A stretch of 64,000 bases of DNA from an uncultured virus (IMG/VR IMGVR_UViG_3300021958_000021). Its lineage: Duplodnaviria > Heunggongvirae > Uroviricota > Caudoviricetes. Positions 14,011 through 63,816 of this stretch are shown here, in pieces. Both the position numbers and the translations under genes were made by a program. The stretch covers positions 62,001-126,000 of IMG/VR virus record IMGVR_UViG_3300021958_000021; one strand, written 5' to 3'. Within the stretch, counting starts at the first letter, position 1, and every line of letters starts with the position of its first letter. The notes under the pieces are model-generated. The model did not search any database and was not told where the DNA came from. It was given only the letters and a program-made list of their open reading frames with translations.

Positions 14011-14015
14011 ACTAA

Positions 14016-14561
14016 TCATCTATTTTTTTGGTATTCGGAGTCTAAAGTTTCTCCTGAATATTCCGAATCATAAGCAATCGTTTGTTCAGGAATTTGAGAT
14101 AATTCGCTTTCAAGTTCCATTAATTTCTTATTAACTTCAACAATTCTATTCATCATCTCATTCTGTTCATCGGGTTTAGCATCCTTGATTTGTTTAGATA
14201 ACCCAGTAAGCATAGCAGATAAACCATCAATTTGTCCAATCAATCTCATTCTTTGTTCATGGTCTAACATAGGATTAGTTTCATAATCTTCAGGTAAAAT
14301 GTTCTTTAGAATCTTAACCATTTTAGTTACTTCACCAGCATAAGCATGAAGAGTAGTCGGGCCATCATTTGATTCTGCCTTGTAGTTGTAATTTTCAGCC
14401 TTTGGTCGCTTCAATTTAACTGCTTCTGAATCATCATCTTCTGGACTACGGTTGTTGTCCATTAAGGATTGATAAAGCATTTCTTTTGCTTCTCTTGCTT
14501 TTTGAATCATAATACTGATTTTTCTTTCTTCTCTAGTAACTCTTTGAGGCATTTTAATCAC
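14016..14561 (-). CDS. Hypothetical coiled-coil protein
   Basis: 181 aa ORF in the operon. Confidence 0.6.
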   Translation of the reverse strand: MIKMPQRVTREERKISIMIQKAREAKEMLYQSLMDNNRSPEDDDSEAVKLKRPKAENYNYKAESNDGPTTLHAYAGEVTKMVKILKNILPEDYETNPMLDHEQRMRLIGQIDGLSAMLTGLSKQIKDAKPDEQNEMMNRIVEVNKKLMELESELSQIPEQTIAYDSEYSGETLDSEYQKNR

Positions 14562-31710: not shown

Positions 31711-32384
31711 TGTAATCTCTCCTGCATTTTACTTTTAATGTCCAACCAAATCTCAGGATTGTTCTGTGCAAGCACTTCTTGAACAATCTGCATTTGTGCG
31801 ACAATAATGGTGTCCTGTCTCTTGTGAATCAATTTACCCTTAAACTCCATAAGATACTTCAAAGATTCTCTAATCTCTCTTGCTAACTTAGTAAGAGCAT
31901 CAATCATCTTAGGGTCTAACTCATTCCCCAATTCATCAAAGACTTGCTCTAATCTTAATTCTAACTTAGCAACATTGTTTGAGAGAGAATCAATCTCATT
32001 TACTTCTTTTTTGGCTATCATCATGGCCGCAGATTCTTGCACGATTGGCGTTAAGTGGTGCTTCATGTGGCGTTGCACCTGTGCTTTTGTAATGTTCAAG
32101 GCCGAAGAAACCCCCTCACTTGAAACATTTCCTTCGGAAAGCGCACTTTCATAATGTTTTCTCATAGGGTCGGTGCATAAAGCACACTTAGGATTTGACG
32201 ACATTTCATATTCTCCCATGTGGTTTCTTTGATGTTGAGCGGAAGTCCCACTTCGCCAACCATGAACAATATCCATTTCATCACAAGACATTGTGCGGTT
32301 TTCAAGAGAGGCTTCAAGTGCTTCCCTTTGTTCACTTTGACACAACCCACAACGCTTTCTAGTTGTCATAGTATCACAAACCAC
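31707..32384 (-). CDS. Putative terminase small subunit / Zn-binding HTH protein
   Basis: Two CxxC...HxxxH repeats with HTH-like segments and a helical C-terminus; lies upstream of terL. Confidence 0.45.
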   Translation of the reverse strand: MVCDTMTTRKRCGLCQSEQREALEASLENRTMSCDEMDIVHGWRSGTSAQHQRNHMGEYEMSSNPKCALCTDPMRKHYESALSEGNVSSEGVSSALNITKAQVQRHMKHHLTPIVQESAAMMIAKKEVNEIDSLSNNVAKLELRLEQVFDELGNELDPKMIDALTKLAREIRESLKYLMEFKGKLIHKRQDTIIVAQMQIVQEVLAQNNPEIWLDIKSKMQERLQ

Positions 32385-36287: not shown

Positions 36288-36503
36288 TTACTCACCAAAG
36301 TCTTGTAGAATTTCAAAAGCCGCTTCTAAGTGTTTGACCACTTCTCTAATATCGTCAGCAGAATCTTTTGGGAATCCCGCCATAAACTCAGGAGAAAACA
36401 ACATTCCTATCTTTTCTCCCAAATCCTTTTTAATTCTACGAAGAGTTTGAACTCTTCTTTCTACATCTTCTTTTTCGTCTTGTTTTATAATATCTTCCCA
36501 CAT
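36288..36503 (-). CDS. Tagged small helical protein
   Basis: Probable start MWEDIIKQD. Confidence 0.6.
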   Translation of the reverse strand: MWEDIIKQDEKEDVERRVQTLRRIKKDLGEKIGMLFSPEFMAGFPKDSADDIREVVKHLEAAFEILQDFGE

Positions 36504-36521
36504 AACAATCACTTTTTCAGT

Positions 36522-36785
36522 TCAAGAAAAGTTCAATATTTCTACTAATTTTTCGTATTCGCTATCTATTCTTTCAACGGCTTTTTCAGCACCTTTAACT
36601 TTCTCAACTGCGAACTTAGCCATGTCTAAAATATAATCGGCTTTTAAATCTGCTTCATCTTCTTCTTCGCTGTCTCTCAAAACCCCTTCCATTTCATGAA
36701 TCCTATTTTTCAATCGTATCAGCAATTTTTCTAAAACAGGAAGTAGGTCTTCTTCGTCTTGTTTGATAATATTTTCCCAATTCAT
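36522..36785 (-). CDS. Tagged small helical protein
   Basis: Probable start MNWENIIKQD. Confidence 0.6.
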   Translation of the reverse strand: MNWENIIKQDEEDLLPVLEKLLIRLKNRIHEMEGVLRDSEEEDEADLKADYILDMAKFAVEKVKGAEKAVERIDSEYEKLVEILNFS

Positions 36786-36786
36786 C

Positions 36787-36999
36787 TTAATCATCTCTAT
36801 CAGATTTTTTTCCTGCTTCTTGCTTATGTTCTCTTAAAGCGGCCACATATTTGTCAAGAGCATTTTTAACTTCTGTATATTCTGCCCCACCTACATAAAA
36901 TCGTGTCATTTCCGTTTTTACCCGCAAAGCCCTTGCTATCATATCATCTACATTTTGCCTATAATTTTTGTTGTATTTGACAATATTTTCCCAATTCAT
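36787..36999 (-). CDS. Tagged small helical protein
   Basis: Probable start MNWENIVKY; AGGTGA RBS; 26-bp repeat 36768-36793 = 36982-37007. Confidence 0.6.
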   Translation of the reverse strand: MNWENIVKYNKNYRQNVDDMIARALRVKTEMTRFYVGGAEYTEVKNALDKYVAALREHKQEAGKKSDRDD

Positions 37000-37120
37000 C
37001 TTAATCACCTTAATTTCTCAAAATTTGGCTCGGAATTTTTTTACGACTAGCGTTTTTTTTTATGAATTTTTTTATGTATTTCCAGAATAAAAAATATTTT
37101 TTTAATTAATTGTTTATTGT

Positions 37121-37462
37121 TTATTTTTTTTCTTTTTCCAATTCATCTAATCTTATTTGTATTGTTTTCTTTTTATGATAAAATGGAATAAGACTTTCTT
37201 TCAATTCTCGTAGTTTTCTTGCAATTTGTTTTAATTTAACCTTATTCTCAGGTAAAGTTTGAGTATTCTTTTTAGATGTATTTGATTTGATGTCTGCCAA
37301 AATATCATTAATAGATTCATTAATAGCAGTAATCTGAGGTAAGACTTCATCCAAACTATTCAATGGATTGCCCCCGTTATACGGAACGAGCCTCACGGTA
37401 TAAAAATGCCGATGCGAGGGGCAATATGTGGGTTCAAAAGGGGCAAAATAACCCATTTTCAA
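37121..37462 (-). CDS. Possible hypothetical protein
   Basis: 113 aa ORF in the AT-rich strand-switch region; no clear RBS. Confidence 0.3.
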   Translation of the reverse strand: MKMGYFAPFEPTYCPSHRHFYTVRLVPYNGGNPLNSLDEVLPQITAINESINDILADIKSNTSKKNTQTLPENKVKLKQIARKLRELKESLIPFYHKKKTIQIRLDELEKEKK

Positions 37463-37705
37463 TCAAAGAATATTAATGAATTAACGATTAATTCAGAAAA
37501 AAATCGGAAACAAAGCCATATGGTTGTAGATACTTCTATTATAACTATATATATCTATTTAAAACTATTTATTTTATTTATGTCATTTCAATCTATTTAT
37601 CCTACCATATGGTTTTCTTTGCTACAACCCGCCTTTTGAATGCAAATTGCGCTTAGTGTCGGCTATGGTGGCCTCAACCGAAAAAACACAAAAGAAGGTG
37701 AAAAA

Positions 37706-38203
37706 ATGGATATGAACAATCAAAAATTCAACGAAAGAACTTCCGACATTCTAATTTGGATGCAGGAAAACGATATTGGCGCACTAGAGCCAATGATTCA
37801 AGGTCAAATTAATTATGGCCGTGGATTGACTGACGAAAAGCAAATCGGTAAGATTTGGAACGCTATTCGTGAAATGTTGGGGACTCTTCCCGAATCCCCA
37901 ATTAAGCGAGGTAAGCAGAGCAGCCTCCCAACCGAGGTTTCTGTTCTTGTTGATTCTTTGGCTAATGATGCGCTTTCTGCACATTTGACGCTAATCAACA
38001 CCGGCGACATGAATCTTTTGCTTTGCCGATTGGGCAAGAAAGCAAACGGTTTGTGGGATGATGAAGAATACGGTGATGCTATGGCTAACCGTGTGAAACA
38101 ATCGCTCATTAAGCGTTATAATCTTGGAATTTGGGACGGAACCCGTGAAGGTCTGTCTTCTCAAGACTTTAGCGTAATTGTGGAGGACTCCGAAGAGGAG
38201 TAA
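37706..38203 (+). CDS. Paralog family member 1 (WxAIRE...SPIKRG...GxWDG)
   Basis: AGGTGA RBS then MDMNNQK; WNAIREMLGTLPESPIKRG; GIWDGT. Confidence 0.8.
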   Translation: MDMNNQKFNERTSDILIWMQENDIGALEPMIQGQINYGRGLTDEKQIGKIWNAIREMLGTLPESPIKRGKQSSLPTEVSVLVDSLANDALSAHLTLINTGDMNLLLCRLGKKANGLWDDEEYGDAMANRVKQSLIKRYNLGIWDGTREGLSSQDFSVIVEDSEEE

Positions 38204-38241
38204 CCTCCACTTTTGTAAATAAATCGGGAAAGGCCACCATA

Positions 38242-38540
38242 TGCCCCCTTTTCCTATTCTCGCTGGATATACCGGTTAAGCCAGCATAGAACCAAAGCCC
38301 TGAACACTCACAAAGTAGTCAAATGTGGGCGAAGTATTGTAATACCCAATAGACCGACGGTGAGGGGTTTCTGACGCTTCCGATATTTTGATGAAATGCA
38401 AACGATAAGTAGGGGTGGCGGTTTTCTTCTCCTTTTGGGGGAAAGCGCACAAAAGAACGATAACCCACATGGCGGCATTTTTATGCCCTGTGTTGAAATT
38501 GGGAGTTATTTAGTAATTGTGCGCTTTCTCCCAGTCTCCG
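38242..38540 (+). ncRNA. Candidate structured RNA in the intergenic region
   Basis: GGGGAAAGCGCACAA (~38438-38452) pairs with TTGTGCGCTTTCTCC (~38517-38531); further GCTGG/CCAGC and GGCAT/ATGCC stems; no credible ORF. Confidence 0.45.
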
Positions 38541-38629
38541 AGGTTGTTTTTAGTGAAACTAAGCAAAGTGAGACACAACCATATGGTTTTCTTTTGTAAA
38601 CTCGGTTTATTATGACATTATTCCCAAAA

Positions 38630-38884
38630 TAACATGAAGAAACATCTTTCTTTCAAACCCATAGGTGAAATAAACCCAAACATCATTGAAAAACACCAAG
38701 CCCTCTTTATACGCTCGGTGAACAATCAAATAAGATATGCTAGCATTGTCACAAAAAACGAATGAGGCTCCGCCCGTTTTGATGTCGCCTGTTCGGGCAT
38801 CATGTATTTTTCCCGAAAAAATGGGATTGTGCAGGGAATGATAGAAAGAGGGGAAAACAGGCTCTTTCCCCTCTTTCGCCCTGC
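38630..38884 (+). ncRNA. Candidate ORF-less ncRNA unit of the array
   Basis: Same palindrome and TTTATTAT upstream as the coding units; ends in a 13-bp hairpin (38844-38877); no ORF of 60 aa or more. Confidence 0.45.
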
Positions 38885-39014
38885 GAGGTAGTTTTAGTTA
38901 ATTTACGAAAGATTTACTACCATATGGTTTGCTTTGCAAACTTGGTTTATTATCCCAAATACTCCCAAACAATGCCGTAAGGTGTGTAATCAAAAAACAA
39001 AGGAGATGAAAAAC

Positions 39015-39530
39015 ATGGACGAAAAAACAGCACATGAACGGGCTAACGAGATTCTCGCATGGCTCAAGGTAAATGGAGAAACCGCAGGGGCTTTGGCTCC
39101 TATGGTTGAGGGCCAATGTAATTATTTGCTTGCCCTTGAAGACGACAAAAACCGAGGAAAGGTTTGGGCGGCTATTCGTGAGATGCTCGGCACTTTGGAG
39201 GAATCCCCAATTAAGCGAGGGACTCGCTCAAACCTCACGGCAGAACAAGACGCAGTTATCGCAAATATCGGCAACCGCATCATGCAAGCCTTTGCTCAAA
39301 TTGGAGAATGGACTTTGATTCAACAGGTTTTCCCCGAATCCACCCGAAAGGGTCAATATGGGGATGTGGAGGCATACGCCGACCACATGCGCCGAAAGGC
39401 CGAAACCAACATGAAAACGGCAATTCGTGAAGAACGCTTTACGGGTCTATTTGATGGTGATTCGCAAAATATCACCATCACGCCAGCAGAACCCCCACAA
39501 AACGCTGAAAGCGGGGAGGCTCAAGAGTAA
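39015..39530 (+). CDS. Paralog family member 2
   Basis: AGGAGATGAAAAACATG start; WAAIREMLGTLEESPIKRG. Confidence 0.8.
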   Translation: MDEKTAHERANEILAWLKVNGETAGALAPMVEGQCNYLLALEDDKNRGKVWAAIREMLGTLEESPIKRGTRSNLTAEQDAVIANIGNRIMQAFAQIGEWTLIQQVFPESTRKGQYGDVEAYADHMRRKAETNMKTAIREERFTGLFDGDSQNITITPAEPPQNAESGEAQE

Positions 39531-39788
39531 TCTTGAGTCCTGCGTTGAGATTTACACACACCAAAAAGGCGCAAACGGCTCCCTCCCCTCAAAATCGCAC
39601 TAATACCCATCTAATGCGGGTCACTTAGTTTAAGCGAGAGGGGGGGGATGCCCCCTTTGGGGTTATTTTCTACGAAAACTTGCAAAGTAAGATGCAACCA
39701 TATGGTTTGCTTTGCAAAACCAACTTATGTATTTTTATGCAAATATTTATTGCATCAACCGCACAAACCGCAAAAGGAGATGAAAAAC

Positions 39789-40325
39789 ATGAAAATGAAA
39801 CATACACGAATAGAACAAATCTATGGAGGCATCAATAACAAAGCATTCGGGGATAATACCCCAATGGTTGAAATGTTGCTTGAGCAGGCGCTTTACGAAG
39901 CAAACGGAGATTATCAAAGCCGAAAGGCGAAACCGTTCTGGGATGCCGTTATTGCACTTGTTAAAGCCTTGAAACCCGAAATGTTTTCACCAAACCGCAT
40001 ACCTCGCCAAATTATGAGCGTAATTGACGACATTTATTCAATTGTTCTCGAAAAGGAAGGAATGCACCTTTACAGGATGAAAGAAGAATTGGGATTCTTG
40101 CCTTTCTTGCCTCGTGGCCGCAGTTGGCTCTATGACCGAGACTGTGAAGGATTGAACGCTCAAGCCCATGTAGACCATATCGCTTTAACACGGGCAAACC
40201 ACACCCGAAACATGCTAATCAAGGCATTTAGGTCGGGTGCTTGGGATGGTTCCCACGATACGATAAATACGGTGTTTTCTACCGGAATTATGCGTGGGTG
40301 CTATGGGCCGGAGGATTGCCGTTAA
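39789..40325 (+). CDS. Paralog family member 3
   Basis: Same AGGAGATGAAAAACATG start; FWDAV..., LGFLPF, GAWDGS. Confidence 0.75.
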   Translation: MKMKHTRIEQIYGGINNKAFGDNTPMVEMLLEQALYEANGDYQSRKAKPFWDAVIALVKALKPEMFSPNRIPRQIMSVIDDIYSIVLEKEGMHLYRMKEELGFLPFLPRGRSWLYDRDCEGLNAQAHVDHIALTRANHTRNMLIKAFRSGAWDGSHDTINTVFSTGIMRGCYGPEDCR

Positions 40326-40354
40326 GCGGTTTAACGGTGGTTGATGCAACAACG

Positions 40355-40387
40355 GGGGGAAAGGGGTCTTTCGACCCCTTTCTCTCC
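40355..40387 (+). terminator. Strong hairpin closing the unit
   Basis: GGGGGAAAGGGGTC-TTTC-GACCCCTTTCTCTCC. Confidence 0.55.
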
Positions 40388-40522
40388 ACTTGTGGTTTTC
40401 AATCATTATTCACAAAGAAAGTCTCAAACCATATGGTTTGCTTTGGAAACCCGACTCTTTAACCAAAAAATGCCTGTTTAATGTCCAAAGGGCAACAAAC
40501 CTAAACAAAGGAGAGAAAAACC

Positions 40523-41041
40523 ATGAGACTGAAAAGAGAACATCAAATCATTCGGCTTGAAAACGCCATCGCAAAAGGGATGGTAACAGACGACCATGTG
40601 CTAAATGCCTTAGAATTGACTTTAGGCCTTTATCATAGTGCGTCGGAAAACAATGCAAGGCAAAGCGTGTATTGGACGGCTATTCGCCACATCGTGAAAA
40701 TGCACGATTATGGGGTTGATGCCTACATGAAGGGAAGAATCCCCCATACCGTTAAACTCAAAATCCATGAAATTGCCCGTGTTGCCCGTGAAGAAGTGTA
40801 TGAGGCATACCTCAACATTCACGACAAACTCGGCTTTTTGCCCATAAAGGTAGATTCTGAGGAATTGCACCGAGCCGATTCAATCGCCCATTCTGCATCC
40901 ATGAAGGTCATGCGCTCAATTGAGCGAAGGCTGACAAACGCCTATAAAGCGGGCGGTTGGGACGGAAGCGTAGAAAGTGCGCCAAATCACTTTGGACAGC
41001 GTTCTTTAGACGCACCAAATTTCAACGGAGGTTTTGAATAG
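40523..41041 (+). CDS. Paralog family member 4
   Basis: YWTAIRHIVK, LGFLPI, GGWDGS; AGGAG RBS. Confidence 0.8.
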   Translation: MRLKREHQIIRLENAIAKGMVTDDHVLNALELTLGLYHSASENNARQSVYWTAIRHIVKMHDYGVDAYMKGRIPHTVKLKIHEIARVAREEVYEAYLNIHDKLGFLPIKVDSEELHRADSIAHSASMKVMRSIERRLTNAYKAGGWDGSVESAPNHFGQRSLDAPNFNGGFE

Positions 41042-41199
41042 GTTTGACCTCCCCTTTGGACATGCACTCCGATTTTGGCTAAATCGGAGCATCACGCATT
41101 AGCCCCAAAGCCCGAATTAGCCCGTAAAACGGCTTTTTCGGGTGGCGGGGTTCTTAATATATATTTTTAACGAAAGTAGCAACGAACCATATGGTATGG

Positions 41200-41850
41200 T
41201 GAATTAATGCCTTCAAGCGCAGGTCTATGTAATACAGTATCTCTTTCTGCAACATTATTTGGGTCTAATTAAACCTACACAGAATTAACAGGGGTTTGAA
41301 TGTAGTAAATTCAATTGGACATATACCCATATGAATAATAATACTATATTATATTCAAGTCGCCAGAAGTTTGTCATGTTTTTAACATGGGTGTGACAAA
41401 TATCAGAGAAGATATGAGAGGGTTATGACCCATAAGCATATTACTATTATATATTTAACATTATTATCATTATTAACATACCATACCATACCATACCATA
41501 CCATATATCACCATCTTATATCCCTCTCATTTCTTAGGGGTTATACAAAATAATACCTTTATGAAAATGAAAAACATGTTAAACATGACAACAATGTTAA
41601 ACATATCATAGTGCTTAGGTTATGTATCACAACCTACCCCAAAACAAATTATCACGGATGTTAAACTTGCGGCTCTTTATCAAGGGTGACGGTTTCGTTT
41701 CTTTTCACTTTTCTATTTTGAAGATAAAAATGAAAATGATGTAAAAATAAAACGAGGATTGCAAAAATAACATGCCGATTATGACAAGGTTATGAAGCAC
41801 AAGTTATGCCTAAAATAGAAAGTTAGAGACATTTGAGTTATTGTTGCGCC
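41200..41850. other. AT-rich non-coding region with short iterated motifs (candidate origin or terminus)
   Basis: (CATAC)x5 at 41477-41501; recurrent GGTTAT and AACATG/TGTTAAAC; no ORF. Confidence 0.5.
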
Positions 41851-41901: not shown

Positions 41902-42369
41902 ATGGATAATGTGAAATGGGAAAGTCTCGTTATTGAGATTACCGAATACCTTGAAGCCGATGACAGTTTGGATGCCGCACTTCGCCAAGTGGTTGAATTG
42001 CACCTCCAAGTTGGACAAGAAAACGAGAATGAGCGAGAAGCCGCTAGTAACGCACTAAAGGCTCTTTTGCGAGGCCGTGACGGAACTCCGTTCCGCCGTG
42101 GACAAAAATCTGCCGTTCCTGCGGCGGTAAGAGTCGCAATTGACCGTATTTGTGGCGTTGTTGAAGAAGCCGCCCTTGGTTTCTTTAACCACGACCCAAT
42201 TATGAGTCAAATTCTCACACAACACGCAAAATCCGGTGGCGGTCTTTTTGAGAACGATGCCGCATATGCCGCTTCTGTTGTGAAGAGAATGCGAAACTCG
42301 CTTTCGTCCCAATATAAGGACGGTTCGTGGGACGGTAGCGTTAATTCTCTACTCGGCAACGAAGAGTGA
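41902..42369 (+). CDS. Paralog family member 5
   Basis: TPFRRGQKSAVP and GSWDGS; upstream TTATATA box at ~41851. Confidence 0.75.
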   Translation: MDNVKWESLVIEITEYLEADDSLDAALRQVVELHLQVGQENENEREAASNALKALLRGRDGTPFRRGQKSAVPAAVRVAIDRICGVVEEAALGFFNHDPIMSQILTQHAKSGGGLFENDAAYAASVVKRMRNSLSSQYKDGSWDGSVNSLLGNEE

Positions 42370-45317: not shown

Positions 45318-46403
45318 ATGGAAATTGAAATTGAAGCACGAAGAGAATTAGGAACAGGTCATTGGGATAAGAAATTAATGCAAAATCTTACTTCTCTTTC
45401 TATTGCAGATAATTATAACGAAGCGAAAGATGAATGGATTGCTACCGGAAATATTTGGTGGGAAGGAATGGGTGGAGAATATCCACAATGGATGAAACAC
45501 CATGGAAAGTGTCTATGTGGGCATACGGTCAAATACCACTTTCATATTCAGAACACGGAAAATGGCGTTGAAGAAGTTGTTGGTAGCGACCACATTAATA
45601 CTTATATGATTAAGCGTGAAATTTCGCTTTCTACTGGAATTAGTGAAGAATTTATTACTGAACAACAAATCAAAGAATGGCTCAATGTTCGCATTGAATC
45701 TATGAAAGCCGCCGCTTGGTGGCTAGCCAATGGTGAGCGTTTTACTGAATTGTTTGAAGAAGTCCGTGAATATGATTTAAGAATCAATGTTCGGGAAAAG
45801 AACATTGTTTGGAGTCATTCCGAAGGAAAGTATGTCTATGATACTGTTCTTCGTAAAAAAGGAAGTGGTTCACCGATGGATGGCGATTATGAAATGGCTT
45901 CCGTTGTTTGGCGTTGGAATCATCCCGATAATTCAAGAAATCAGCGTGATGGGAGAGGCTATCCAAACGAGCGTCTTATGCAAGATTTGTATATTTTGCA
46001 ATTTCAAATCATGCAAATGAAAGAAAAATTAGATGAAGAAGATAACGAACTTCAAACTTTGACTCAACAAATGCTTGAAAAACAATCAAATAATGTTCAA
46101 GAAAAACAGCAGTTATCCTTTGAAGAACGGTGCAGTTATTTTGGTATTCCTGCGTTTGATTCGTCTTGGGGCTATAACGATTGGACACGGACATTCCTTG
46201 CCGATATGAAGCGTTTGATGACGGCTGGAAGAGATTTGACTCAATCCCAACAGGATAATTTGTTGAAGATTATTCGGGGCAATCAAGCCACCGATAAACA
46301 GATGGCTTATTTGCGAGATTTGGGATATGATGGTGTTCATCACCTCTCTAAATCGGAGGCATCTAATCTTATCAGCAAGTATTTGTTGCAGGAGAACATC
46401 TGA
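45318..46403 (+). CDS. Hypothetical protein with CxCGH motif and C-terminal AT-x-KQ..L helical motif
   Basis: KCLCGH...VGSDHI; C-terminal ATDKQMAYLRDLG...LSKSEASNLI. Confidence 0.65.
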   Translation: MEIEIEARRELGTGHWDKKLMQNLTSLSIADNYNEAKDEWIATGNIWWEGMGGEYPQWMKHHGKCLCGHTVKYHFHIQNTENGVEEVVGSDHINTYMIKREISLSTGISEEFITEQQIKEWLNVRIESMKAAAWWLANGERFTELFEEVREYDLRINVREKNIVWSHSEGKYVYDTVLRKKGSGSPMDGDYEMASVVWRWNHPDNSRNQRDGRGYPNERLMQDLYILQFQIMQMKEKLDEEDNELQTLTQQMLEKQSNNVQEKQQLSFEERCSYFGIPAFDSSWGYNDWTRTFLADMKRLMTAGRDLTQSQQDNLLKIIRGNQATDKQMAYLRDLGYDGVHHLSKSEASNLISKYLLQENI

Positions 46404-46621
46404 TTCCTTGTTGGAGGCAGTTTTGCGTCTTCACAGGAAAAGTAGGTTTAAAAAATAAAAATGCAAGTCTTCAGGTATGGTGCATTTTCCTACAACGGGG
46501 TTTGTCAAGTAAAAAAGAACAAAGTTGTTTACCTCACGACATATAGGGTATTTGGTTGGTCTTCTGTCCTGTTCTTTTTTGGAACCAATATGGTTCCTTC
46601 CCCACCCTTTAAGGTGATACT

Positions 46622-46864
46622 ATGTTTAAAAGATGGTTTAGCAAATATAAAGTAAAAGAAAAACCTATCATTAGATGCGGAGACTGTTTTCTTAAGGCAC
46701 ACTACTATATACAAATTAGATTCCAGCCAATCGGAGAAAGACCGCTAGATGAAAAAATAATAATTCCAATATGTAATGATTGTTATGAGCAAATATATGA
46801 AAGATATAACCCGCAAAGACTCCCTGCGCCTGTTCAAGTCGGAGTATTTGAACAGACGCATTAA
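46622..46864 (+). CDS. Small Zn-ribbon protein
   Basis: CGDC...CNDC; AGGTGA RBS. Confidence 0.6.
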   Translation: MFKRWFSKYKVKEKPIIRCGDCFLKAHYYIQIRFQPIGERPLDEKIIIPICNDCYEQIYERYNPQRLPAPVQVGVFEQTH

Positions 46865-50281: not shown

Positions 50282-51490
50282 ATGATAGACTATGATTTTG
50301 ATTTTAATATTAAAAAACCCGATGACTCACAAACCAGTTGGACAGTCAATTGTTCAGTTGTTGTTGAAAATCCTGATAATTTAGAAAATACTCTGTTTAG
50401 AAAAATCTTTCCTAGGCATAGTGTTTATCATATTACAGAACGAAAGTCGTCAAAAATAACCTCTTATCCAAACAGACAAGCAAAAGACCCTGTTCATGGC
50501 GGAATTGTTCAACAAATTAAAACTATGATTCAAGTCCCACGAAAACGAAGAAGGCAATATGTTGAAAGAATGGCTGAATATAGCGGCATCCTTAAAATTG
50601 AAGGTCTGCCTATTCTCCTTGCTAAAAATGATATTCGCTATTCTATCAATGGGAGAGCAGAGTCTCTAGAAAGAATTTCTGATATTCTAGCAAGATTGAT
50701 GTTCAAAGCGATTAATACGAAAGATACGAATAAACTAATGGCTTCTCTTTACTCTTTTCTAGATATGCCTGAAAATGTTAGATATGCCCTTGAAAACAAC
50801 ACTCCCTATACTTTTTATCAAGACTTTGAAAAGTATGATGTTAGGCTAAAAACCCAACAAATTGGAGATGATGAATATGCGCTTGAAGTAAGTGATGGAA
50901 TTTGGGGAACAATGTCTTCTAAGGATTTGGTGGTGTTTGTTAATACTTATCTTCACGGCAAAAAAAGAGGGTCTTGGTATCAGATTTCGCCCAAAAATCT
51001 TTACCTGCGAACAGTAGGAAAAGAACCCTCTCAATCTGATATTAAAGTCATGCGAGAGTTTTTGAAACAAAACCGAACTTCGGATATTGTTGAAAAAAGG
51101 GCTAGAGATTTGGTTAGAGAATTAGAATCCCAATATTCCGATAGGATTACTGTCCGTTGGAATGAAAAAGACATGCCGGAAAAAATCTTCGTTAGAGGAA
51201 AAGGTTACGATTGGTTGTTAGAAGCACGAAACTACAAACGGTCATATCAAGATGTATCTACATTTGTCTATCAGCCTCAAGACGGTGAAGGAAATTGGGT
51301 TGGCCCAATTTGTATTGACAATATGAATAATGATTCTTCAATTGGCGACCAATTCGCCGCTAGAGTATTAGCATTTATTAATGATAATGTCACAGTTAAA
51401 TTGGTAAGCACACTTAACCATAGAATAAAAACAGAACCAAATGAATATAGAGTTGATAAAAATGAAGTGTCTAGAATGTGGAATGAATGA
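50282..51490 (+). CDS. Hypothetical protein with Cys-containing C-terminal domain (E2 candidate)
   Basis: 402 aa; GPICID...GDQFAARVLA; lies between the Ubl and E1 genes. Confidence 0.55.
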   Translation: MIDYDFDFNIKKPDDSQTSWTVNCSVVVENPDNLENTLFRKIFPRHSVYHITERKSSKITSYPNRQAKDPVHGGIVQQIKTMIQVPRKRRRQYVERMAEYSGILKIEGLPILLAKNDIRYSINGRAESLERISDILARLMFKAINTKDTNKLMASLYSFLDMPENVRYALENNTPYTFYQDFEKYDVRLKTQQIGDDEYALEVSDGIWGTMSSKDLVVFVNTYLHGKKRGSWYQISPKNLYLRTVGKEPSQSDIKVMREFLKQNRTSDIVEKRARDLVRELESQYSDRITVRWNEKDMPEKIFVRGKGYDWLLEARNYKRSYQDVSTFVYQPQDGEGNWVGPICIDNMNNDSSIGDQFAARVLAFINDNVTVKLVSTLNHRIKTEPNEYRVDKNEVSRMWNE

Positions 51491-52310
51491 ATTTAATTTT
51501 AATGAAGGCCTAGGAGAAACAGAATGCGTCAATTGCGGTTTAGTGGTTCAAAGTGAACCATTTGAACAGAGCGTTAGAATGGTGAATGATGGCGTTTCTG
51601 TTCATTCAGCAGACAGAAATAGGCTAGGGTCTGTTATTACGGGCAAGGGGTCTTATAAATACAATAAGCGGGGAATGAATACTGATATTCCTACGCATAT
51701 TACGAGAGGACTTTCTCTTTGTAAAATGGTTCTTGCTTCTATTCAAGAAAATAGCAATCTTAGAGATAGAGTAGAAGAAGTATATCTTGAATTATATGCA
51801 AAGGGTATTTTTGGAACACACAGTCTTGAAAATAGAGCAGTTTCAGTTACTTATTATGTATTGCTTGAAAACAAGACTCCAACCCCTCTAAAAGATATTG
51901 CTAAAGAATTTGATTGTAAAATTAAATCTACTGGGAAATTAGTTAGAAAAATACTGTCTTTTTATAGGCATAAGAAACCTGACTTAATTCCAGACTCTAA
52001 TTTTTTGTTGTCACAAACGGTAGCAAAAATCACAAACGATGGTTTTTTCTTAACTCTGTGTCAAGAAACTATGCAAGCCTTAGAACCAATTTTAGAAAAA
52101 GCCGACTACAATAAAACTCCGAGTTATTTTGCCTGTATTGCTTGGATTACCAAAAACATTAATCTGTATTCCACAATTACGATTTCTAAGATTTCTAAAA
52201 CAACTGGAATACATCGGGCAACAATATACAAAAACACAAAAAATATTATATCATTGTTAGGATATACAGAAGTTAAAGAAATGAAAGGAAGAAAAATTAA
52301 GGAGGAATAA
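51462..52310 (+). CDS. tfb: Transcription initiation factor B (TFIIB/TFB-like)
   Basis: N-terminal Zn ribbon CLECG...GETECVNCGLV, LGSVI linker, two cyclin-like repeats. Confidence 0.85.
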   Translation: MKCLECGMNEFNFNEGLGETECVNCGLVVQSEPFEQSVRMVNDGVSVHSADRNRLGSVITGKGSYKYNKRGMNTDIPTHITRGLSLCKMVLASIQENSNLRDRVEEVYLELYAKGIFGTHSLENRAVSVTYYVLLENKTPTPLKDIAKEFDCKIKSTGKLVRKILSFYRHKKPDLIPDSNFLLSQTVAKITNDGFFLTLCQETMQALEPILEKADYNKTPSYFACIAWITKNINLYSTITISKISKTTGIHRATIYKNTKNIISLLGYTEVKEMKGRKIKEE

Positions 52311-52312
52311 AA

Positions 52313-52735
52313 ATGAATGAATCAGAAACCATTGATGCGATTGAAACTGGAGTCATTGAGACTCTTAAGAACTTAAGAACAGATTGTCCCTTTTGTAAGG
52401 AACAAACCGAGTTGTATTTGAGGAAACAAAATAATACATTTTTGGCACTCACTAACCCGTTTGACGACTTACAATTCATGCTCAATTTTAATTGGGATTG
52501 TCCTGTTTGCGAAAAAAATGTAAAACCTAAAGATGTTCTTCCTCTTTCTCCCGAAGAACAAGAGGTTGAAAAATATGAAAATATGGGACACAAGGTTGTA
52601 TTCCACATGGAATACGACGCATACTTGAATTATACTCTTAAGGAGAAAATTGGCTCACAAGATTGTGAGGATAAAAATTGTGAATTTTGCAATAAAGAAA
52701 TTGATTGGAAGAAAATTAAGGAGGAATACGAATGA
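52313..52735 (+). CDS. Zn-ribbon protein
   Basis: CPFC...CPVC and a C-terminal CEDKNCEFC. Confidence 0.6.
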   Translation: MNESETIDAIETGVIETLKNLRTDCPFCKEQTELYLRKQNNTFLALTNPFDDLQFMLNFNWDCPVCEKNVKPKDVLPLSPEEQEVEKYENMGHKVVFHMEYDAYLNYTLKEKIGSQDCEDKNCEFCNKEIDWKKIKEEYE

Positions 52736-53289
52736 GAAAAGTATTAATTATTGGAGCAGGAGGAATTGGAAGTTTTCTAATTCCTATATTGGATAAAGTG
52801 GGACTTTACCGCATTCATGTGGCTGACCCCGATAGTGTAGAAACAAAGAACCTACCATATCAAAACTTTAAGAAAGGTCATGTTGGACAGAATAAGGCTC
52901 AAGTAATGATGGATTCTTATGAATCTGTCGCTACTTATAGTAAATATCCCATTTTGACCGAAAAACAAATGCAGGGATATGACCTTGTAATTTGTTGTGT
53001 GGATAACATTTCAGTAAGGCGAACCTTATACAACACAAGTATTAAATGGCTTGACTTACGAGCGCAGGGCAGAAATGCCGCTCTTGTGTCACATAAGGCC
53101 GACCCCAAAATGTATGATATGCTTTTGGCTGGTGAAGAGGGTTCTTTCAGTTGTCAAGGGGATTCATGGGATGGAACAAATAATGGTGTTCATTATATGC
53201 AAGTCGCAATTGCAGGATTAGGCGCACAATGGGCGCAAAGATATTTTAATAAAGAAGAAGTAAAAGAATACATGGTATTAAACGCATAA
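52732..53289 (+). CDS. ThiF/MoeB/E1-like adenylating enzyme
   Basis: IIGAGGIGS, DPDSVETKNL.YQ, GQNKA, CVDN..RR and a C-terminal SCQ. Confidence 0.9.
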   Translation: MRKVLIIGAGGIGSFLIPILDKVGLYRIHVADPDSVETKNLPYQNFKKGHVGQNKAQVMMDSYESVATYSKYPILTEKQMQGYDLVICCVDNISVRRTLYNTSIKWLDLRAQGRNAALVSHKADPKMYDMLLAGEEGSFSCQGDSWDGTNNGVHYMQVAIAGLGAQWAQRYFNKEEVKEYMVLNA

Positions 53290-55169: not shown

Positions 55170-56684
55170 ATGATTATTCATGGAGAAGAAGTAAAAGAAA
55201 AACTACTACAAGGGATTAATCTTGTAGCGGCCACAGTAAGCCCGACTTTAGGCCCACAAGCAAAAACAGTTATTTTGCAGGGAGAACCCCCAATTATTAT
55301 TAATGACGGAGTTACTATTGCTAAATATGTTTCACATGCTGACCCGTATGTTCAAATGGGAATCCAAATGGTTCAGAATCTTTCTTCAAAGGCTCAAGAA
55401 TTAAATGGAGATGGGACTACAACTTCTTGTATTATTGCTGAGGCTCTTTGCGAATCTATTAATTCTCAGAACTTTTACAACCTGCATACTTTGCGGCAAG
55501 AATTAGAAGAAGCACAACACATCGTTGTTAATGCGCTGGAATCTAATGCTTTGGAAGTTACAGATGAAGATATTGTTTCTGTCGCTACTATTGCATCTAA
55601 TAATGACGAATATCTTGGTAACTTGATTCATCAAGCAATTGCAAAGGTTGGGCGTGATGGAATCATTACTGTTGAAGAATCGCCAAACTACAAAACTAAT
55701 TTGTTGGTAAGAGAAGGTCTTGAAATTGATGAAGGTTTCCTAAGTCATTTAATGGCGAATGGGGAAGATGGGAAGGCCACTTATGACAATCCTTTGATTT
55801 TTTCATCTAATTTGAATATCCGGAATTTTGATATGATTTTGCCGATGTTGGAATATGCTTCGTCAAATAACCGACCTTTAATTATTTTCTGTAAAGGCAT
55901 GGAAGGTTCAGCCATGAACAATTTAGTTATGAACCTTTTGCAGAAGACGGTTCAAGTCTGTGCGATTGGCGCACCTAATTTTGGTGACGCTCAAATTGAC
56001 GAATTAGGAGATATTGTTGCTACTGTTGGAGGTCGCCTATTTACAGATGAAAGCCACGATGAACCCGAAAGAATTATGCCGCATGAGTTTGGGACTTGTG
56101 ATAGAATTATTGTCACGAAAGAAAAAACAATTATTGTAGGCGGGAACGGAGATGTATCTTCTAGGATTAATACTCTTAAGCAAACTTTTGCTGATACTGA
56201 GGATAATTATGTAAAGGCTCGTCTGAAGAAAAGAATTTCAATTTTGAACGGCGGAGTCGCCACAATTCAGATTGGGGCTTCTTCTCAAATTCAAATGCGA
56301 GAAACTAAAGAAAGACTAGATGATGCCCTTAACGCTACAAAAGCGGCTCTTTCGGAAGGAATTATTGTTGGTGGAGGATTAGGCCTATTGCAAGCAAGAG
56401 AATCCCTTGAATTGCTGAAGACAGGCCATAAGATTGTATATGACGCATTAGAAGCCCCTATGGGGGCTTTATTAGCAAATAGCGGAATTGAGCAAACTAC
56501 TGCATTTGATAAGTTTCGGCCTGACGAAAACTTTGGATTTAACGCTTTGACGGGACAGTATGGAAATCTTTTTGAAGAAGGAGTCATTGACCCAGTTAAG
56601 GTAGTCAAGGGAAGTTTCAATTGTGCAATTTCAATTGCTCAATTGTTCTTGACAACTGAAGTAGCAGTATTGTTGGAGGAATAA
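55170..56684 (+). CDS. groL: Group I chaperonin GroEL-like
   Basis: TLGPQ, INDGVTIAK, GDGTTT, APNFGD, ERLDDALNATKAA..EGII.GGG and GVIDPVKV. Confidence 0.93.
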   Translation: MIIHGEEVKEKLLQGINLVAATVSPTLGPQAKTVILQGEPPIIINDGVTIAKYVSHADPYVQMGIQMVQNLSSKAQELNGDGTTTSCIIAEALCESINSQNFYNLHTLRQELEEAQHIVVNALESNALEVTDEDIVSVATIASNNDEYLGNLIHQAIAKVGRDGIITVEESPNYKTNLLVREGLEIDEGFLSHLMANGEDGKATYDNPLIFSSNLNIRNFDMILPMLEYASSNNRPLIIFCKGMEGSAMNNLVMNLLQKTVQVCAIGAPNFGDAQIDELGDIVATVGGRLFTDESHDEPERIMPHEFGTCDRIIVTKEKTIIVGGNGDVSSRINTLKQTFADTEDNYVKARLKKRISILNGGVATIQIGASSQIQMRETKERLDDALNATKAALSEGIIVGGGLGLLQARESLELLKTGHKIVYDALEAPMGALLANSGIEQTTAFDKFRPDENFGFNALTGQYGNLFEEGVIDPVKVVKGSFNCAISIAQLFLTTEVAVLLEE

Positions 56685-57247: not shown

Positions 57248-57646
57248 ATGACAGAAAGAGCAGTAACGGTGACTTTACCTGCCCCACATAAGGCAGAAAT
57301 TAAATGTCCTATTTGTTCTGGAAACCGATGTAAAGTTTGTGAAAATAGTGGGTCGCTAAAAATTGCAGTTGCTCCCAAAATCCCTATTCAAAGAGCGCAC
57401 ATTGTTAAATATGTGGTTGATAATATTCACGAAATTGCCGGAGAAATTACTAGAATGTATGGCCTAGTCCCCAAAGTTAATACCGAAGAAGTTACTAGCA
57501 TAAATGGTGGACAATATGAAATAGTTAAGGTTTCTAGTCTTGGCGGGGTCTGTTGGGTTGTTAATCGTATAGATGAGTTAGACACCCCTAGATATTTTAC
57601 TTCATTACAAGAATTGGATAAGTTTAAGCAGGGGTGGATGAATTGA
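57248..57646 (+). CDS. Zn-finger protein (CxxCxG..CxxC)
   Basis: CPICSGNRCKVC. Confidence 0.6.
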   Translation: MTERAVTVTLPAPHKAEIKCPICSGNRCKVCENSGSLKIAVAPKIPIQRAHIVKYVVDNIHEIAGEITRMYGLVPKVNTEEVTSINGGQYEIVKVSSLGGVCWVVNRIDELDTPRYFTSLQELDKFKQGWMN

Positions 57647-57840
57647 GCGAATTAGAAACAGTCGGAATTATAGCGAGAACCGCTACTGACACTATTCTCA
57701 TTAAGAGAGGAAAATATTGGAATGTTGAAGTCTTGGACATTCGGTGGTATAATAACGATAAACCATCAAGAAAAGGTATTCGTATGAATATGGAAGAAGC
57801 AAAAGAATTACTAGAAATATTAAGGAGAGAAATAGAATGA
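57634..57840 (+). CDS. PC4/Sub1-like ssDNA-binding protein
   Basis: VLDIRWY...PSRKGIRM...KELLE, a PC4 signature. Confidence 0.78.
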   Translation: MDELSELETVGIIARTATDTILIKRGKYWNVEVLDIRWYNNDKPSRKGIRMNMEEAKELLEILRREIE

Positions 57841-58109: not shown

Positions 58110-58603
58110 TGATGAAATTGGGGGATGCGATGCTTGAGTTAGCAACCATCGCCGCCGATTCTAAGGCATTTGATAAATGGGTTCTTGAAAAGAGGGCGTG
58201 TTTAGATAAATCTTTGATTCCTAGATTTACAAAAGAATTGACTGGAATTAAAAAAATTCGCAAAAATAAAAAGTTTGCAGACCAATATAGGTTGCATTTA
58301 AGTCTCGTATTTATTTTCTTTTGGGAAGCAAGGGACGATTGGAGAGTTGAAAACTTTTGTTTTCAAGTCGCTCATGCAACAATTATGTTTATGCAACAAA
58401 CTTCATTTCGTATGCCCGAAGAATTGAAGACAACACTAAATGACTTCAACTTCCTTGAAGTTTATTTAAATTGGGCAAACTCAGTATTAGAAGGAAATGA
58501 TGAAAATGACATGGAAATTGATGACAAACTTATTGGAAGCGACGGATGGACGAACACCGACGATTCAGACAAAAATGATTTTAAGGGAAATGGAGAATTT
58601 TGA
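58106..58603 (+). CDS. Hypothetical protein
   Basis: 165 aa ORF; 3' end overlaps the ligase start. Confidence 0.55.
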   Translation: MMMKLGDAMLELATIAADSKAFDKWVLEKRACLDKSLIPRFTKELTGIKKIRKNKKFADQYRLHLSLVFIFFWEARDDWRVENFCFQVAHATIMFMQQTSFRMPEELKTTLNDFNFLEVYLNWANSVLEGNDENDMEIDDKLIGSDGWTNTDDSDKNDFKGNGEF

Positions 58604-60032
58604 TTCTCCCTATTTCTTTAAAATTCTAGCATTAGAATTGGACGCAAATAATATTGCAGAAAAGAAAGCAGAAAAGTGGATGGCTAATATTTTGGGTGTC
58701 CATGACGAAGAAATGGAAACTTCGGCCTACATTTCAGACGATTTGGGAGAAGCAGTATTTAATATGCACATGGGGAAAGAAACTCTTCAAGAACATTCTC
58801 TTGAAGAAGTTTCTAATCTATTGCAAATAAATTGTGCAAAAATGGATTCGCCTGAATTTAGAGCGATACGACTAGCCATAGGAAATATGTCTGCGCTTGA
58901 AAGAAAGTGGTTTATCAGATATTGGCTTAGGACTCCAAGAAACGGCATTTCAAAAGGAAATGTTATTAAGATGGTTTCTAAGACATACAAGAAAAACCTT
59001 GCCGTGGTTAAGAAGCACACCAATTTTAATTCTATACAATCAACAGTAAGCCACTACGATGCAAATAGTGAACCTCCTTGCAATTTAACATTTGGTAAGT
59101 TTATTGCTCCAATGTTAGCAAAAGAAGTGCCTATTTCTAGTTGGCCTAAAAAGTATATTGTTGATTATAAATACGATGGAAACCGCTACCAAATCCATAA
59201 GAAAGAAGAAGCAGTTATGATTTTTAATAGAAAGGGGAAAGAAGTCACCGAAAAGTTTCCAGATGTAGTAGAATTAATTTCCAGATATAATGTAACTACG
59301 GCTATTTTTGATGGTGAAATCTATCCCGTAAATCCAGATGGTTCTCCGGCAGAACACAAAAAAATGGGGACGAGGGTTCATTCTAAGAATGTCATAGAAG
59401 CCGTTGAGCGTGTTCCTGTTGCGTGGGTCATGTTTGACTGTCTTCTATGGGAGAATGTAACTCTCATGGATTTGAGGTTCTCACAACGCTTAGAATATTT
59501 CAAGCATATGCCTAACCAAGCACATCGCTTAGAAGGTGGCGACATCATGGCTTTTTATGATAAGGCCATTAAAGAGGGCTTTGAGGGTATTATTATCAAA
59601 AACACTACTCTTCCTTATCACGCCGGAAAAAGAAGTATAGGTTGGGTAAAGTATAAGCCGCCACTAATTGAATTAGATGTGGTAATTTTATCCGCAACCT
59701 ATGGGACAGGAAAGAGAGCCAATGTTTTTGGCCGATTTGAAATTGGAGTTAAATCGGATAATGGCTATGTATCTGTAGGATATGTAGGTAATGGATTAGC
59801 CGACTATCAGTTTGATTTGTTAACCAAAACATTGAAAACAAAGGTAAAGCACTACAAGGATAGAATTTATACTTTTATTCCTGAGATTGTTTTAGAAGTC
59901 CGAGCAGACTTAATTAGCCAAGATGCACAGGGAAACATTGGTCTACGGTTTCCCAGAATTAAACGAATTAGAGATGATAAATTCGTTGAAGATATAGACA
60001 CAATAAAAACAGTAATGGAGAAATTAGCATGA
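58506..60032 (+). CDS. lig: ATP-dependent DNA ligase
   Basis: PMLA, DYKYDGNR, FDGE, FDCL, EGIIIK, WVKYK and LRFPRIKRIRDDK. Confidence 0.93.
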   Translation: MTWKLMTNLLEATDGRTPTIQTKMILREMENFDSPYFFKILALELDANNIAEKKAEKWMANILGVHDEEMETSAYISDDLGEAVFNMHMGKETLQEHSLEEVSNLLQINCAKMDSPEFRAIRLAIGNMSALERKWFIRYWLRTPRNGISKGNVIKMVSKTYKKNLAVVKKHTNFNSIQSTVSHYDANSEPPCNLTFGKFIAPMLAKEVPISSWPKKYIVDYKYDGNRYQIHKKEEAVMIFNRKGKEVTEKFPDVVELISRYNVTTAIFDGEIYPVNPDGSPAEHKKMGTRVHSKNVIEAVERVPVAWVMFDCLLWENVTLMDLRFSQRLEYFKHMPNQAHRLEGGDIMAFYDKAIKEGFEGIIIKNTTLPYHAGKRSIGWVKYKPPLIELDVVILSATYGTGKRANVFGRFEIGVKSDNGYVSVGYVGNGLADYQFDLLTKTLKTKVKHYKDRIYTFIPEIVLEVRADLISQDAQGNIGLRFPRIKRIRDDKFVEDIDTIKTVMEKLA

Positions 60033-62901: not shown

Positions 62902-63816
62902 ATGCTATGGACAGAAAAATACAGACCTAAACAATTGAGCCAAATTGTCGGACAAGAACACTTTACAATGGATGCAGTTAATTGGGTAGAAGAAAATAAT
63001 ATGCCTAATATTTTATTGTATGGTAATGCTGGCTTAGGTAAAACTGCGGCGGCAATCGCTTTAGCAAAATCAATGTTAGGAGAATCTTTTGAAGATAACT
63101 TCTATGAATTGAATGCTTCTGATGATAGACGATTAGAAACGGTGAGGACTACAATTAAAGAAATTGCTCAAGCAAAAACTTTGGGAGGAATGCCGTTTAG
63201 GATTCTTCTTCTTGATGAAATGGGCGGCATGACAAAGGATGCTCAAAATTCTTTGAAGCGCATTATGGAAAGATATGCAGGTAATATTAGATTTATTATT
63301 ACTTGCAACGATAGGAATAAAATTATTTTTCCTCTCCAAAGCCGGTGTGCTAATTATCGTTTCAAGCCTTTGGCTAATGAAGTCATTTTAGAAGTATTGC
63401 AATCAATCATTCAAAAAGAAGGTTTGAGAACATTTGACGATGATGAATTGTCGTCTTTTATATATGACTTAAACGGTGACTTGCGTAGGGCGATTACTGA
63501 ATTACAGGCGGCGAAAGCCTCTAACTTCACATTGTCTAAGCAAATAGAAGAATCAAATAAAGAATACATAGAAATACTAAACCACCTACAAGAACGCAAT
63601 TCCAACAAAGCCTTAACTATCCTCCATCAAATGATTTATGATGGCCGTTCAGTTAAGGAGATATGTAACGGATTGCACAATTCTTTGCTTAATATGCAAG
63701 GATTAGAAGTGGGAATCAAATTTAAATATCTTAGAGTTATAGGAGAAACAGAATGGCGTTCCCCAACAATGACACCAAGAATTATTTTATCTTGGATGGT
63801 CGGTCAATTAATTTGA
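62902..63816 (+). CDS. rfcS: Replication factor C small subunit
   Basis: WTEKYRP, GNAGLGKT, ELNASD, LLDE, LQSRC and GDLRRAI. Confidence 0.93.
   Translation: MLWTEKYRPKQLSQIVGQEHFTMDAVNWVEENNMPNILLYGNAGLGKTAAAIALAKSMLGESFEDNFYELNASDDRRLETVRTTIKEIAQAKTLGGMPFRILLLDEMGGMTKDAQNSLKRIMERYAGNIRFIITCNDRNKIIFPLQSRCANYRFKPLANEVILEVLQSIIQKEGLRTFDDDELSSFIYDLNGDLRRAITELQAAKASNFTLSKQIEESNKEYIEILNHLQERNSNKALTILHQMIYDGRSVKEICNGLHNSLLNMQGLEVGIKFKYLRVIGETEWRSPTMTPRIILSWMVGQLI

Follow-up and report, generated by a model that had tools for sequence, protein, structure and literature searches.

Complementary 5' and 3' flanks around an array of magrovirus genes and the case for panhandle messages

Do the genes of a viral array in which each gene seems to be bracketed by its own pair of complementary flanks give rise to messages that close upon themselves, or is the complementarity accidental, or a property of the DNA? 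The question is raised by a stretch of 64,000 nucleotides (nt), the window, which covers positions 62001-126000 of the 184,733-base virus record IMGVR_UViG_3300021958_000021 (IMG/VR). Between 37.4 and 42.7 kb the window holds five diverged paralogs of about 155-178 amino acids (aa), with 16-36% identity to the first of them (unit 1). A first-pass annotation of this sequence had proposed that each of the first four units is enclosed by complementary arms folding its messenger RNA (mRNA) into a panhandle, the arm sequences differing from unit to unit while the geometry is kept in units 1, 3 and 4.

Pairing between the flanks of the array genes

The four arm pairs of the annotation are present in the sequence, and all features of units 1 to 5 given here lie on the + strand. 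In unit 1, whose open reading frame (ORF) of 165 aa runs from 37706 to 38203, the 5' arm (37661-37681) consists of an outer helix (37661-37674), a 3-nt loop and a helix of 4 base pairs (bp) at 37678-37681, and the 3' arm lies at 38224-38245. An inner helix joins 37688-37699, which adjoins and touches the Shine-Dalgarno sequence, to 38203-38216, the first base of which is the last base of the stop codon. The arms of unit 3 (39750-39771 and 40326-40349) enclose an ORF of 178 aa (39789-40325) and those of unit 4 (40481-40503 and 41039-41063) an ORF of 172 aa (40523-41041); the 3' arm opens on the first base past the stop codon in unit 3 and includes the TAG stop codon in unit 4. In unit 2 (ORF of 171 aa, 39015-39530) the arms at 38981-38991 and 39549-39562 are weak, with about 8-10 bp. 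A strong Shine-Dalgarno sequence precedes each of the four ORFs. Taken alone, the annotated arms gave duplex energies of -25.5, -10.6, -29.9 and -27.9 kcal/mol for units 1 to 4.

For a measure of flank pairing, fixed windows were used, extending from -75 to -8 relative to the ATG on the 5' side and from the stop to +50 on the 3' side; as controls, the 3' flank was shuffled 12 times with its dinucleotides preserved. The flanks of units 1, 3 and 4 were more stable than every shuffle, with -38.0 kcal/mol against a shuffle mean of -17.3 and a best of -21.3 for unit 1, -33.8 against -18.9 and -27.8 for unit 3, and -40.9 against -19.1 and -23.0 for unit 4. The proposed pairing of the flanks in each unit holds for these three but not for unit 2, which at -17.9 kcal/mol stayed within the shuffle range (mean -15.3, best -22.3) and alone is not beyond chance; its ortholog in a related locus (L012) retains a 10-bp helix despite altered letters. 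No pairing was observed for unit 5 (ORF of 155 aa, 41902-42369), whose flank duplex of -13.8 kcal/mol compares with a shuffle mean of -14.3. This member of the same protein family, like a paralog at G000:C1:9766-10239, has an ordinary short leader and a terminator made of an ordinary hairpin and a T-run, with neither the upstream palindrome described below nor a panhandle, and the paralogs of this type are a natural negative control inside the family.

Over all 262 greedily called ORFs of the record, the flank measure had a mean of -14.5 kcal/mol and a 5th percentile of -23.5, and the two most extreme values belonged to members of the family, p7 and unit 4. A position-free scan for long-range inverted repeats (dG <= -24) returned 116 hits for the record and 56 for its block-shuffled version, and scans of this kind are therefore noisy; many of the top hits were pairings between copies of the palindromic promoter motif.

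A profile of the family detected 8 copies within the record and, in public metagenomes, 47 related proteins, and pattern searches based on the alignment of unit 1 orthologs yielded 31 related loci (5 viral and 26 from metagenomes). A hidden Markov model of the five paralogs identified 81 ORFs in the record and these loci, 67 of them with start, stop and both flanks, and 58 after removal of redundancy. Over these 58 units the cognate flank duplex averaged -36.7 kcal/mol. Shuffled 3' flanks gave a mean of -22.8 and non-cognate ones, taken from other loci, a mean of -23.3; the cognate duplex was more stable than each of the 12 shuffles in 49 units and than each of the 8 non-cognates sampled in 40. 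The full 58x58 flank matrix was read against 16 flank families defined by shared 8-mers, of which units 1, 3 and 4 occupy different ones, in agreement with the annotated difference between their arms. The pairing was conserved in homologous units: a unit's own 3' flank was a better partner than the 3' flank of any other family in 46 of the 58, spanning 10 of the 16 families with arms unrelated to one another. The exceptions were the 4 units of the unit 5 type, which belong to 2 families and do not pair, two further units lacking the motif, the 2 weakly pairing units of the unit 2 type, a family of three with intermediate values and a single member of a family of four. End-to-end pairing also appeared when whole units were folded between fixed ends (-60 from the ATG to +60 past the stop): 50 of the 58 minimum-energy structures joined the first 52 to the last 63 nt by 12 or more pairs, and ensemble expectations were similar.

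Compensatory change was seen in an alignment of ten unit 1 orthologs (65-92% protein identity) on a 27-pair structure. In this alignment 86.2% of the cells were paired, against 41-51% when the partners were slid by 1-3 columns; five pairs (14 cells) had changed on both sides, and the covariation score of 0.211, compared with 0.137 in column shuffles, was reached by none of 500 shuffles. The inner helix by the Shine-Dalgarno sequence has had nearly all its letters replaced between ortholog subgroups by compensatory changes, with the pairing kept. Within-family alignments gave two or more Watson-Crick types in 11 of 65 or 12 of 69 consensus pairs. Column identity among the unit 1 orthologs was 0.86 in the arms, 0.74 at third codon positions and 0.61 just upstream of the arm. 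From this comparison we take the flank complementarity to be under selection, as the annotation had suggested, since it is kept in relatives with different arm sequences. The stem, internal loop and stem geometry is found in units 1, 3 and 4 but is not a general rule, many relatives having near-continuous helices with single mismatches or bulges.

Host assignment and register of the arms with expression signals

The record encodes a portal, an HK97-type capsid protein, a prohead protease and a terminase, with an HNH-containing gene inside the structural block. It carries two ATP-dependent DNA ligases, one at 11029-14019 (-) amid the portal, capsid and protease genes and the other at 58497-60032 (+), a GroEL of the bacterial type and not a thermosome subunit (window 55170-56684, matching GroEL chains with E down to 5.6e-104), tRNA-Leu and tRNA-Arg, each detected by ARAGORN and Rfam, and, as the one replisome-type gene in the parts scanned, an RFC-like ATPase or clamp loader at window 62902-63816. 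The matches of the capsid protein in the phage collection, at 24-30% identity, were to 11 records, all 11 of archaeal tailed viruses. Group-B magroviruses, assigned to Marine Group II archaea (Philosof et al. 2017), have the same combination of ligases, GroEL and tRNAs as far as their description in PMC5434244 goes. Since these features match that description and the capsid matches are archaeal, the gene content places the window in a tailed virus of Marine Group II archaea, namely a group-B magrovirus, and the archaeal host assumed by the annotation agrees with this. The record is made of two collinear genomes of ~91-94 kb each, ~70% identical and placed head to tail, so that position 1 aligns with position 93,923; their junction falls inside the window, near its position 31923. 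Probably the record is a chimera assembled from two related magroviruses and not a single genome. The window's array lies near the start of the second genome, and its counterpart is at 5.1-10.2 kb of the first.

With an archaeal host, the signals to expect are those of archaeal expression, namely promoters with a B recognition element (BRE) and a TATA box, and oligo-T terminators. When aligned on the palindrome, the upstream regions have a common order of CCATATGG, CTTTG at most a few bases on, an A/C-rich stretch with CC at its end and a TATA-like box, and from this box to the 5' arm there are about 20-25 nt. Of 57 distinct upstream regions, 52 contain the palindrome; the other five belong to units without a panhandle. 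The palindrome lies at 37605-37612 in unit 1, where it is followed by CTTTG and, ~26 nt ahead of the 5' arm, by a weak TATA-like element, at 38920-38927 in unit 2, at 39698-39705 in unit 3 (TATA-like element at about 39724-39732) and at 40429-40436 in unit 4.

The register of the arms was counted in 37 units in which they are clearly bounded. The first base of the 5' arm is G in 31 of these and is preceded by T in 26, and the best TATA-like 8-mer is centred 20-32 nt upstream of the arm in 32, with a mode of -26. The archaeal TATA box is centred near -26, and the predicted transcript therefore starts on the first base of the 5' arm. At the other end, the distance from the first base of the stop codon to the 3' arm is 0-6 nt in 18 units, and in 25 a run of three or more T opens 0-8 nt past the arm; in unit 1, CCC stands between the arm and the T-run. 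This promoter and T-run geometry agrees with the annotation, which had placed the 5' arm near the expected transcription start and the 3' arm close after the stop. The transcript would start at the 5' arm and end shortly past the 3' arm, which would put both of its termini in the panhandle.

The palindrome has 20 copies in the record, 17 of which sit in two early-gene arrays, one per unit, beside a BRE/TATA-like element. Copies with CAAAG upstream and CTTTG downstream are found at window 37516, 37605, 38579, 38920, 39698, 40429 and 41187 and in G000:C1:5107-9021, and they are likely to be the operator of a shared early-gene regulator. The copy at 37516 lies in front of a 113-aa gene (37121-37462) in the opposite orientation. 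A unit at G000:C1:8068-8690 (-) has the same palindrome, TATA spacing and GCTTCGGGGGG start but no open reading frame, and could be a decayed unit or a non-coding RNA. In most units, GGTTnnn after CCATATGG is complementary to nnnAACC just before the TATA box (for example window 39704-39722), which places CTTTG in the loop of a hairpin with apparent compensatory changes between units. As a candidate structure this hairpin was rejected: with DNA parameters its energy, on average -4.0 against -3.0 kcal/mol, was no better than that of shuffled sequence, and 5 of 50 hairpins surpassed all 30 of their shuffles.

Proposed panhandle messages and alternative readings

What has to be explained is a complementarity that is conserved through changed sequences and that stands in register with promoter, stop codon and T-run. 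The reading that we prefer, at a probability of roughly one half, is that the array units are self-contained early genes whose mRNAs are each closed as a panhandle, most likely shielding both ends. Each unit would consist of a palindromic control site, a BRE/TATA promoter, the 5' arm, a leader of 11-31 nt carrying the Shine-Dalgarno sequence, the ORF, the 3' arm, and a short C-run and T-run at which the archaeal RNA polymerase would be expected to stop. The arms would pair in the RNA over about 15-30 bp, both termini of the message would lie inside one duplex, and neither would be single-stranded for host 5'-to-3' or 3'-to-5' exoribonucleases, which would make the early messages long-lived; as a side effect, the stop codon would be brought to about 20-30 nt from the ribosome-binding site. 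A reading in RNA is favoured because of the position of the arms and because arms 560 bp apart cannot pair in duplex DNA. Protection of the ends from exonucleases is the most likely function by analogy with the hbs mRNA of Bacillus subtilis, for which PMC5737220 describes a 14-bp pairing of the 5' and 3' untranslated regions (UTRs) that limits RNase access or modulates RNase cleavage. The panhandle mRNA of the annotation stands as the best reading of the conserved pairing and of the arm position, but the mechanism that came with it, by endonuclease and circularisation, is not supported.

Several observations weigh against the panhandle message. No RNA run carries window 37500-41200, and hence the start, the end and the strand of the transcript are all inferred. 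Selection on one strand was not significant in the tests: G-U and A-C mismatches stood at 40:11 over the 58 related units, at 6:3 with one representative per arm cluster (p=0.51) and at 20:13 for within-family pairs defined without favouring G-U (p=0.30), a further count of 49:6 being biased by pairs defined with a fold that accepts G-U. Sense and antisense duplexes were about equally stable, at -41.7 and -39.1; the slight advantage of the sense strand was seen in 28 of 45 units, and by family in 6 of 10 (p=0.375). A transcript starting a few bases inside the 5' arm would lose the outer pairs, and the T-runs past the 3' arm are short (3-5 T), with 12 of the 37 units having none within 8 nt. 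A terminating ribosome must melt the inner helix in each round, so that the panhandle would not be static on a translated message. Finally, members of the family of the unit 5 type manage without a panhandle.

The main rival to end protection, though we consider it unlikely, is a control of translation in which the stop codon is brought beside the ribosome-binding site, in a closed loop with re-initiation, or in which a partly masked Shine-Dalgarno sequence gates initiation. The distances fit (18 of 37 units have the 3' arm 0-6 nt from the stop, and 11-31 nt separate the end of the 5' arm from the ATG), although the short UTRs of a compact viral genome alone would put the arms near start and stop. 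Similarly, the inner helix of the unit 1-type units reaches the first bases of the Shine-Dalgarno sequence, which in most units lies, however, outside the helix. An anti-Shine-Dalgarno-like CCTCC is found just past the unit 1 stop (38204-38208) and another in the internal loop of the unit 4 3' arm (41048-41052); these could pair with the unit's own ribosome-binding site. There are precedents in haloarchaea, where translational regulation is described as requiring both the 5' and the 3' UTR (PMC2636863), and in Staphylococcus aureus, where the icaR mRNA is repressed by pairing of its 3' UTR to the Shine-Dalgarno region (PMC3868564). We give little weight to the proposal that the early messages are functionally or covalently circular, with termini juxtaposed, ribosomes handed from stop to start, or ends sealed by a host ligase; if true, an archaeal virus would have evolved closed-loop mRNAs in the absence of cap and poly(A). 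An element acting in DNA is distinctly unlikely. The annotation had offered single-stranded DNA stem-loops that define mobile cassettes, and the inverted repeats might likewise flank an invertible or recombining cassette, switched on and off by flipping of the ORF. The layout of 15-30 bp inverted repeats around about 560 bp is that of invertible segments, and the strand-bias tests do not prove a constraint at the level of RNA. Yet the record has no tyrosine or serine recombinase, the ORF is in sense behind a directional promoter module in 52 of 57 upstream regions with no inverted copy among the 57, and the arm sequences vary by unit, so no single site-specific enzyme would fit them. Contigs from other samples do diverge at unit boundaries, with loose ends at 38203, 38588 and 40526, but the contigs of 4 DNA runs, which cover the locus in fragments and drop rare variants, have no strand-changing or unit-skipping joint; one run has an 82-nt skip inside unit 2. 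The points of divergence coincide with landmarks of the units, past the unit 1 stop (38203), past a palindrome (38588) and at the unit 4 start (40526), which suggests mosaic exchange of units between related viruses. Nor would a DNA element explain why the arms are in register with TATA box, stop codon and T-run. The cassette proposal found no support in the search for recombinases or in the contig joints, but keeps a small probability because the strand-specificity tests were not significant. Two specific candidates were not borne out: an invertible DNA segment, for want of an inverted copy, a strand-changing joint and a recombinase, and an integron gene cassette, for want of a tyrosine recombinase and with arms on both sides of the ORF instead of a local attC hairpin 3' of it.

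The duplex might instead be a site of processing, at which an RNase specific for double-stranded RNA (RNase III-like) would trim leader and trailer to a stub-ended message, as in bacterial ribosomal RNA (rRNA) precursors and T7 early mRNAs; this we hold to be very unlikely. The helices of the array have about two helical turns, often with small internal loops, and in this resemble substrates of RNase III. The pairing of the icaR UTRs is reported to create an RNase III substrate (PMC3868564). However, the virus record has no RNase III, the family was found in 0 of 4 archaeal as against 8 bacterial control genomes (a set without Marine Group II/Poseidoniales genomes), and the predicted transcript has little or nothing beyond the helix to trim. 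Least probable of all is that the stems are substrates of the archaeal splicing endonuclease and that the excised message is ligated to a circle, like archaeal pre-rRNAs. The host is archaeal, and the 16S and 23S precursors of archaea are described as being cut at bulge-helix-bulge motifs in their flanking stems and circularised (PMC7038931, PMC7714728), but this motif (two 3-nt bulges on opposite strands with a 4-bp helix between them, 3-4-3) could be drawn in 13 of 58 cognate pairs compared with 11-13 of 58 non-cognate pairs in five rounds. It is neither enriched nor conserved, the cognate cases are slipped registers of continuous helices, and the virus record lacks EndA and RtcB as well as RNase III, which argues against the endonuclease cleavage that the annotation had proposed. 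An RNA-ligase role for the 996-aa ligase of the structural module was likewise rejected, DNA ligases being its only matches.

Surroundings of the array and comparison with known systems

Pfam and PHROG gave no family for any of the five paralogs, and the named phage records gave no DNA or protein match to the array. An AlphaFold model of the unit 1 protein (33-row alignment) is all-helical, with a predicted local distance difference test (pLDDT) score of 81.1 and a predicted template modelling (pTM) score of 0.60; a Foldseek search of this model against the PDB returned nothing at E<=0.001, and a wide VIA structure search returned generic three-helix matches alone, over residues 1-69 (best Z 8.7). 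Elsewhere in the window, three tandem small paralogs of 73-90 aa, starting MI(K/V)M(N)WE(N/D)I, are transcribed away from the array at 36288-37008 (-). A local hairpin with 17-nt arms that are 94% complementary and a 64-nt loop lies at 38436-38533, between unit 1 and the next palindrome, and an AT-rich imperfect inverted repeat with 59-nt arms (76% complementary) lies at 41421-41634, between the array and unit 5, with a short ACCAT tandem run inside it (41474-41513). At 46380-46720, a 64-codon ORF is enclosed by a two-helix long-range pairing of -31.7 kcal/mol. Neither the record nor the loci contain a homolog of this ORF, which seems to be non-coding; the pairing may be a structured RNA or chance. 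Possible viral transcription or modification factors are a TFIIB-type zinc ribbon protein (51441-52310, E 1.1e-5, below the Pfam cut-off), a PC4-like small protein (57634-57840) and a ThiF-family protein (52732-53289).

Magroviruses are abundant, uncultivated viruses of marine archaea, and the helices described here are long enough to hold both ends of an RNA. If the pairing takes place in RNA, it would offer a simple route to nuclease-resistant or ribosome-recycling messages in archaea, would mark a class of early and possibly anti-defence magrovirus genes, and might be used as a model for building stable mRNAs for expression in archaea. The pairing is also relevant to whether mRNA was functionally circularised before eukaryotes arose, a question raised in PMC2636863. 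In the literature searched, no description of such panhandles was found for archaeal viruses; neither of two magrovirus papers mentions promoters, and one of them is also silent on inverted repeats, TATA and paralogs.

Several known systems share part of this layout. The 5' and 3' termini of one RNA pair in the segment panhandles of RNA viruses and in the cyclisation of flavivirus genomes, but both of these are replication promoters of RNA genomes, whereas the array would encode messages of a DNA virus. Hypervariable arrays of small ORFs with a structured boundary element, in which structure is kept and sequence varies, are known from the promoter-early stem-loop cassettes of T4-type phages and the attC cassettes of integrons; these elements are local hairpins on one side of the ORF, whereas here the strands lie on opposite sides and there is no integrase. 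Fast-diverging arrays of small single-gene units near a genome end, with one conserved regulatory sequence in common that includes a strong BRE/TATA promoter, are likewise described for SIRV2 and other archaeal viruses and are read as early, anti-defence genes (PMC11065993). The magrovirus arrays, near the genome end, with one shared regulatory module and rapid divergence, resemble them, although the relevant passages of PMC11065993 describe promoters and no pairing of 5' and 3' flanks, and the motif here (CCATATGG ... CTTTG) is a different one. The processing stems of archaeal rRNA (PMC7038931, PMC7714728) similarly close a functional RNA by a long-range helix between inverted repeats, but they enclose rRNA and not mRNA, and their bulge-helix-bulge motif is the one not enriched in the array. 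The closest parallels are hbs of B. subtilis (PMC5737220) and icaR of S. aureus (PMC3868564), in which leader and trailer of one message pair over a long range, as here; for icaR, the pairing is reported to control translation and decay. Both are single bacterial host genes, while the present case is a viral gene family with at least ten unrelated arm sequences and an archaeal host; its helices, known from sequence alone, are longer (about 15-30 bp), involve what is predicted to be the very 5' end and begin at the stop codon. Pairing of the UTRs is thus already known, in prokaryotes from a few single genes, and what would be new is its conserved, gene-family-wide form in an archaeal virus, with about 46 units in at least ten arm families, as a maintained feature of a whole early-gene class.

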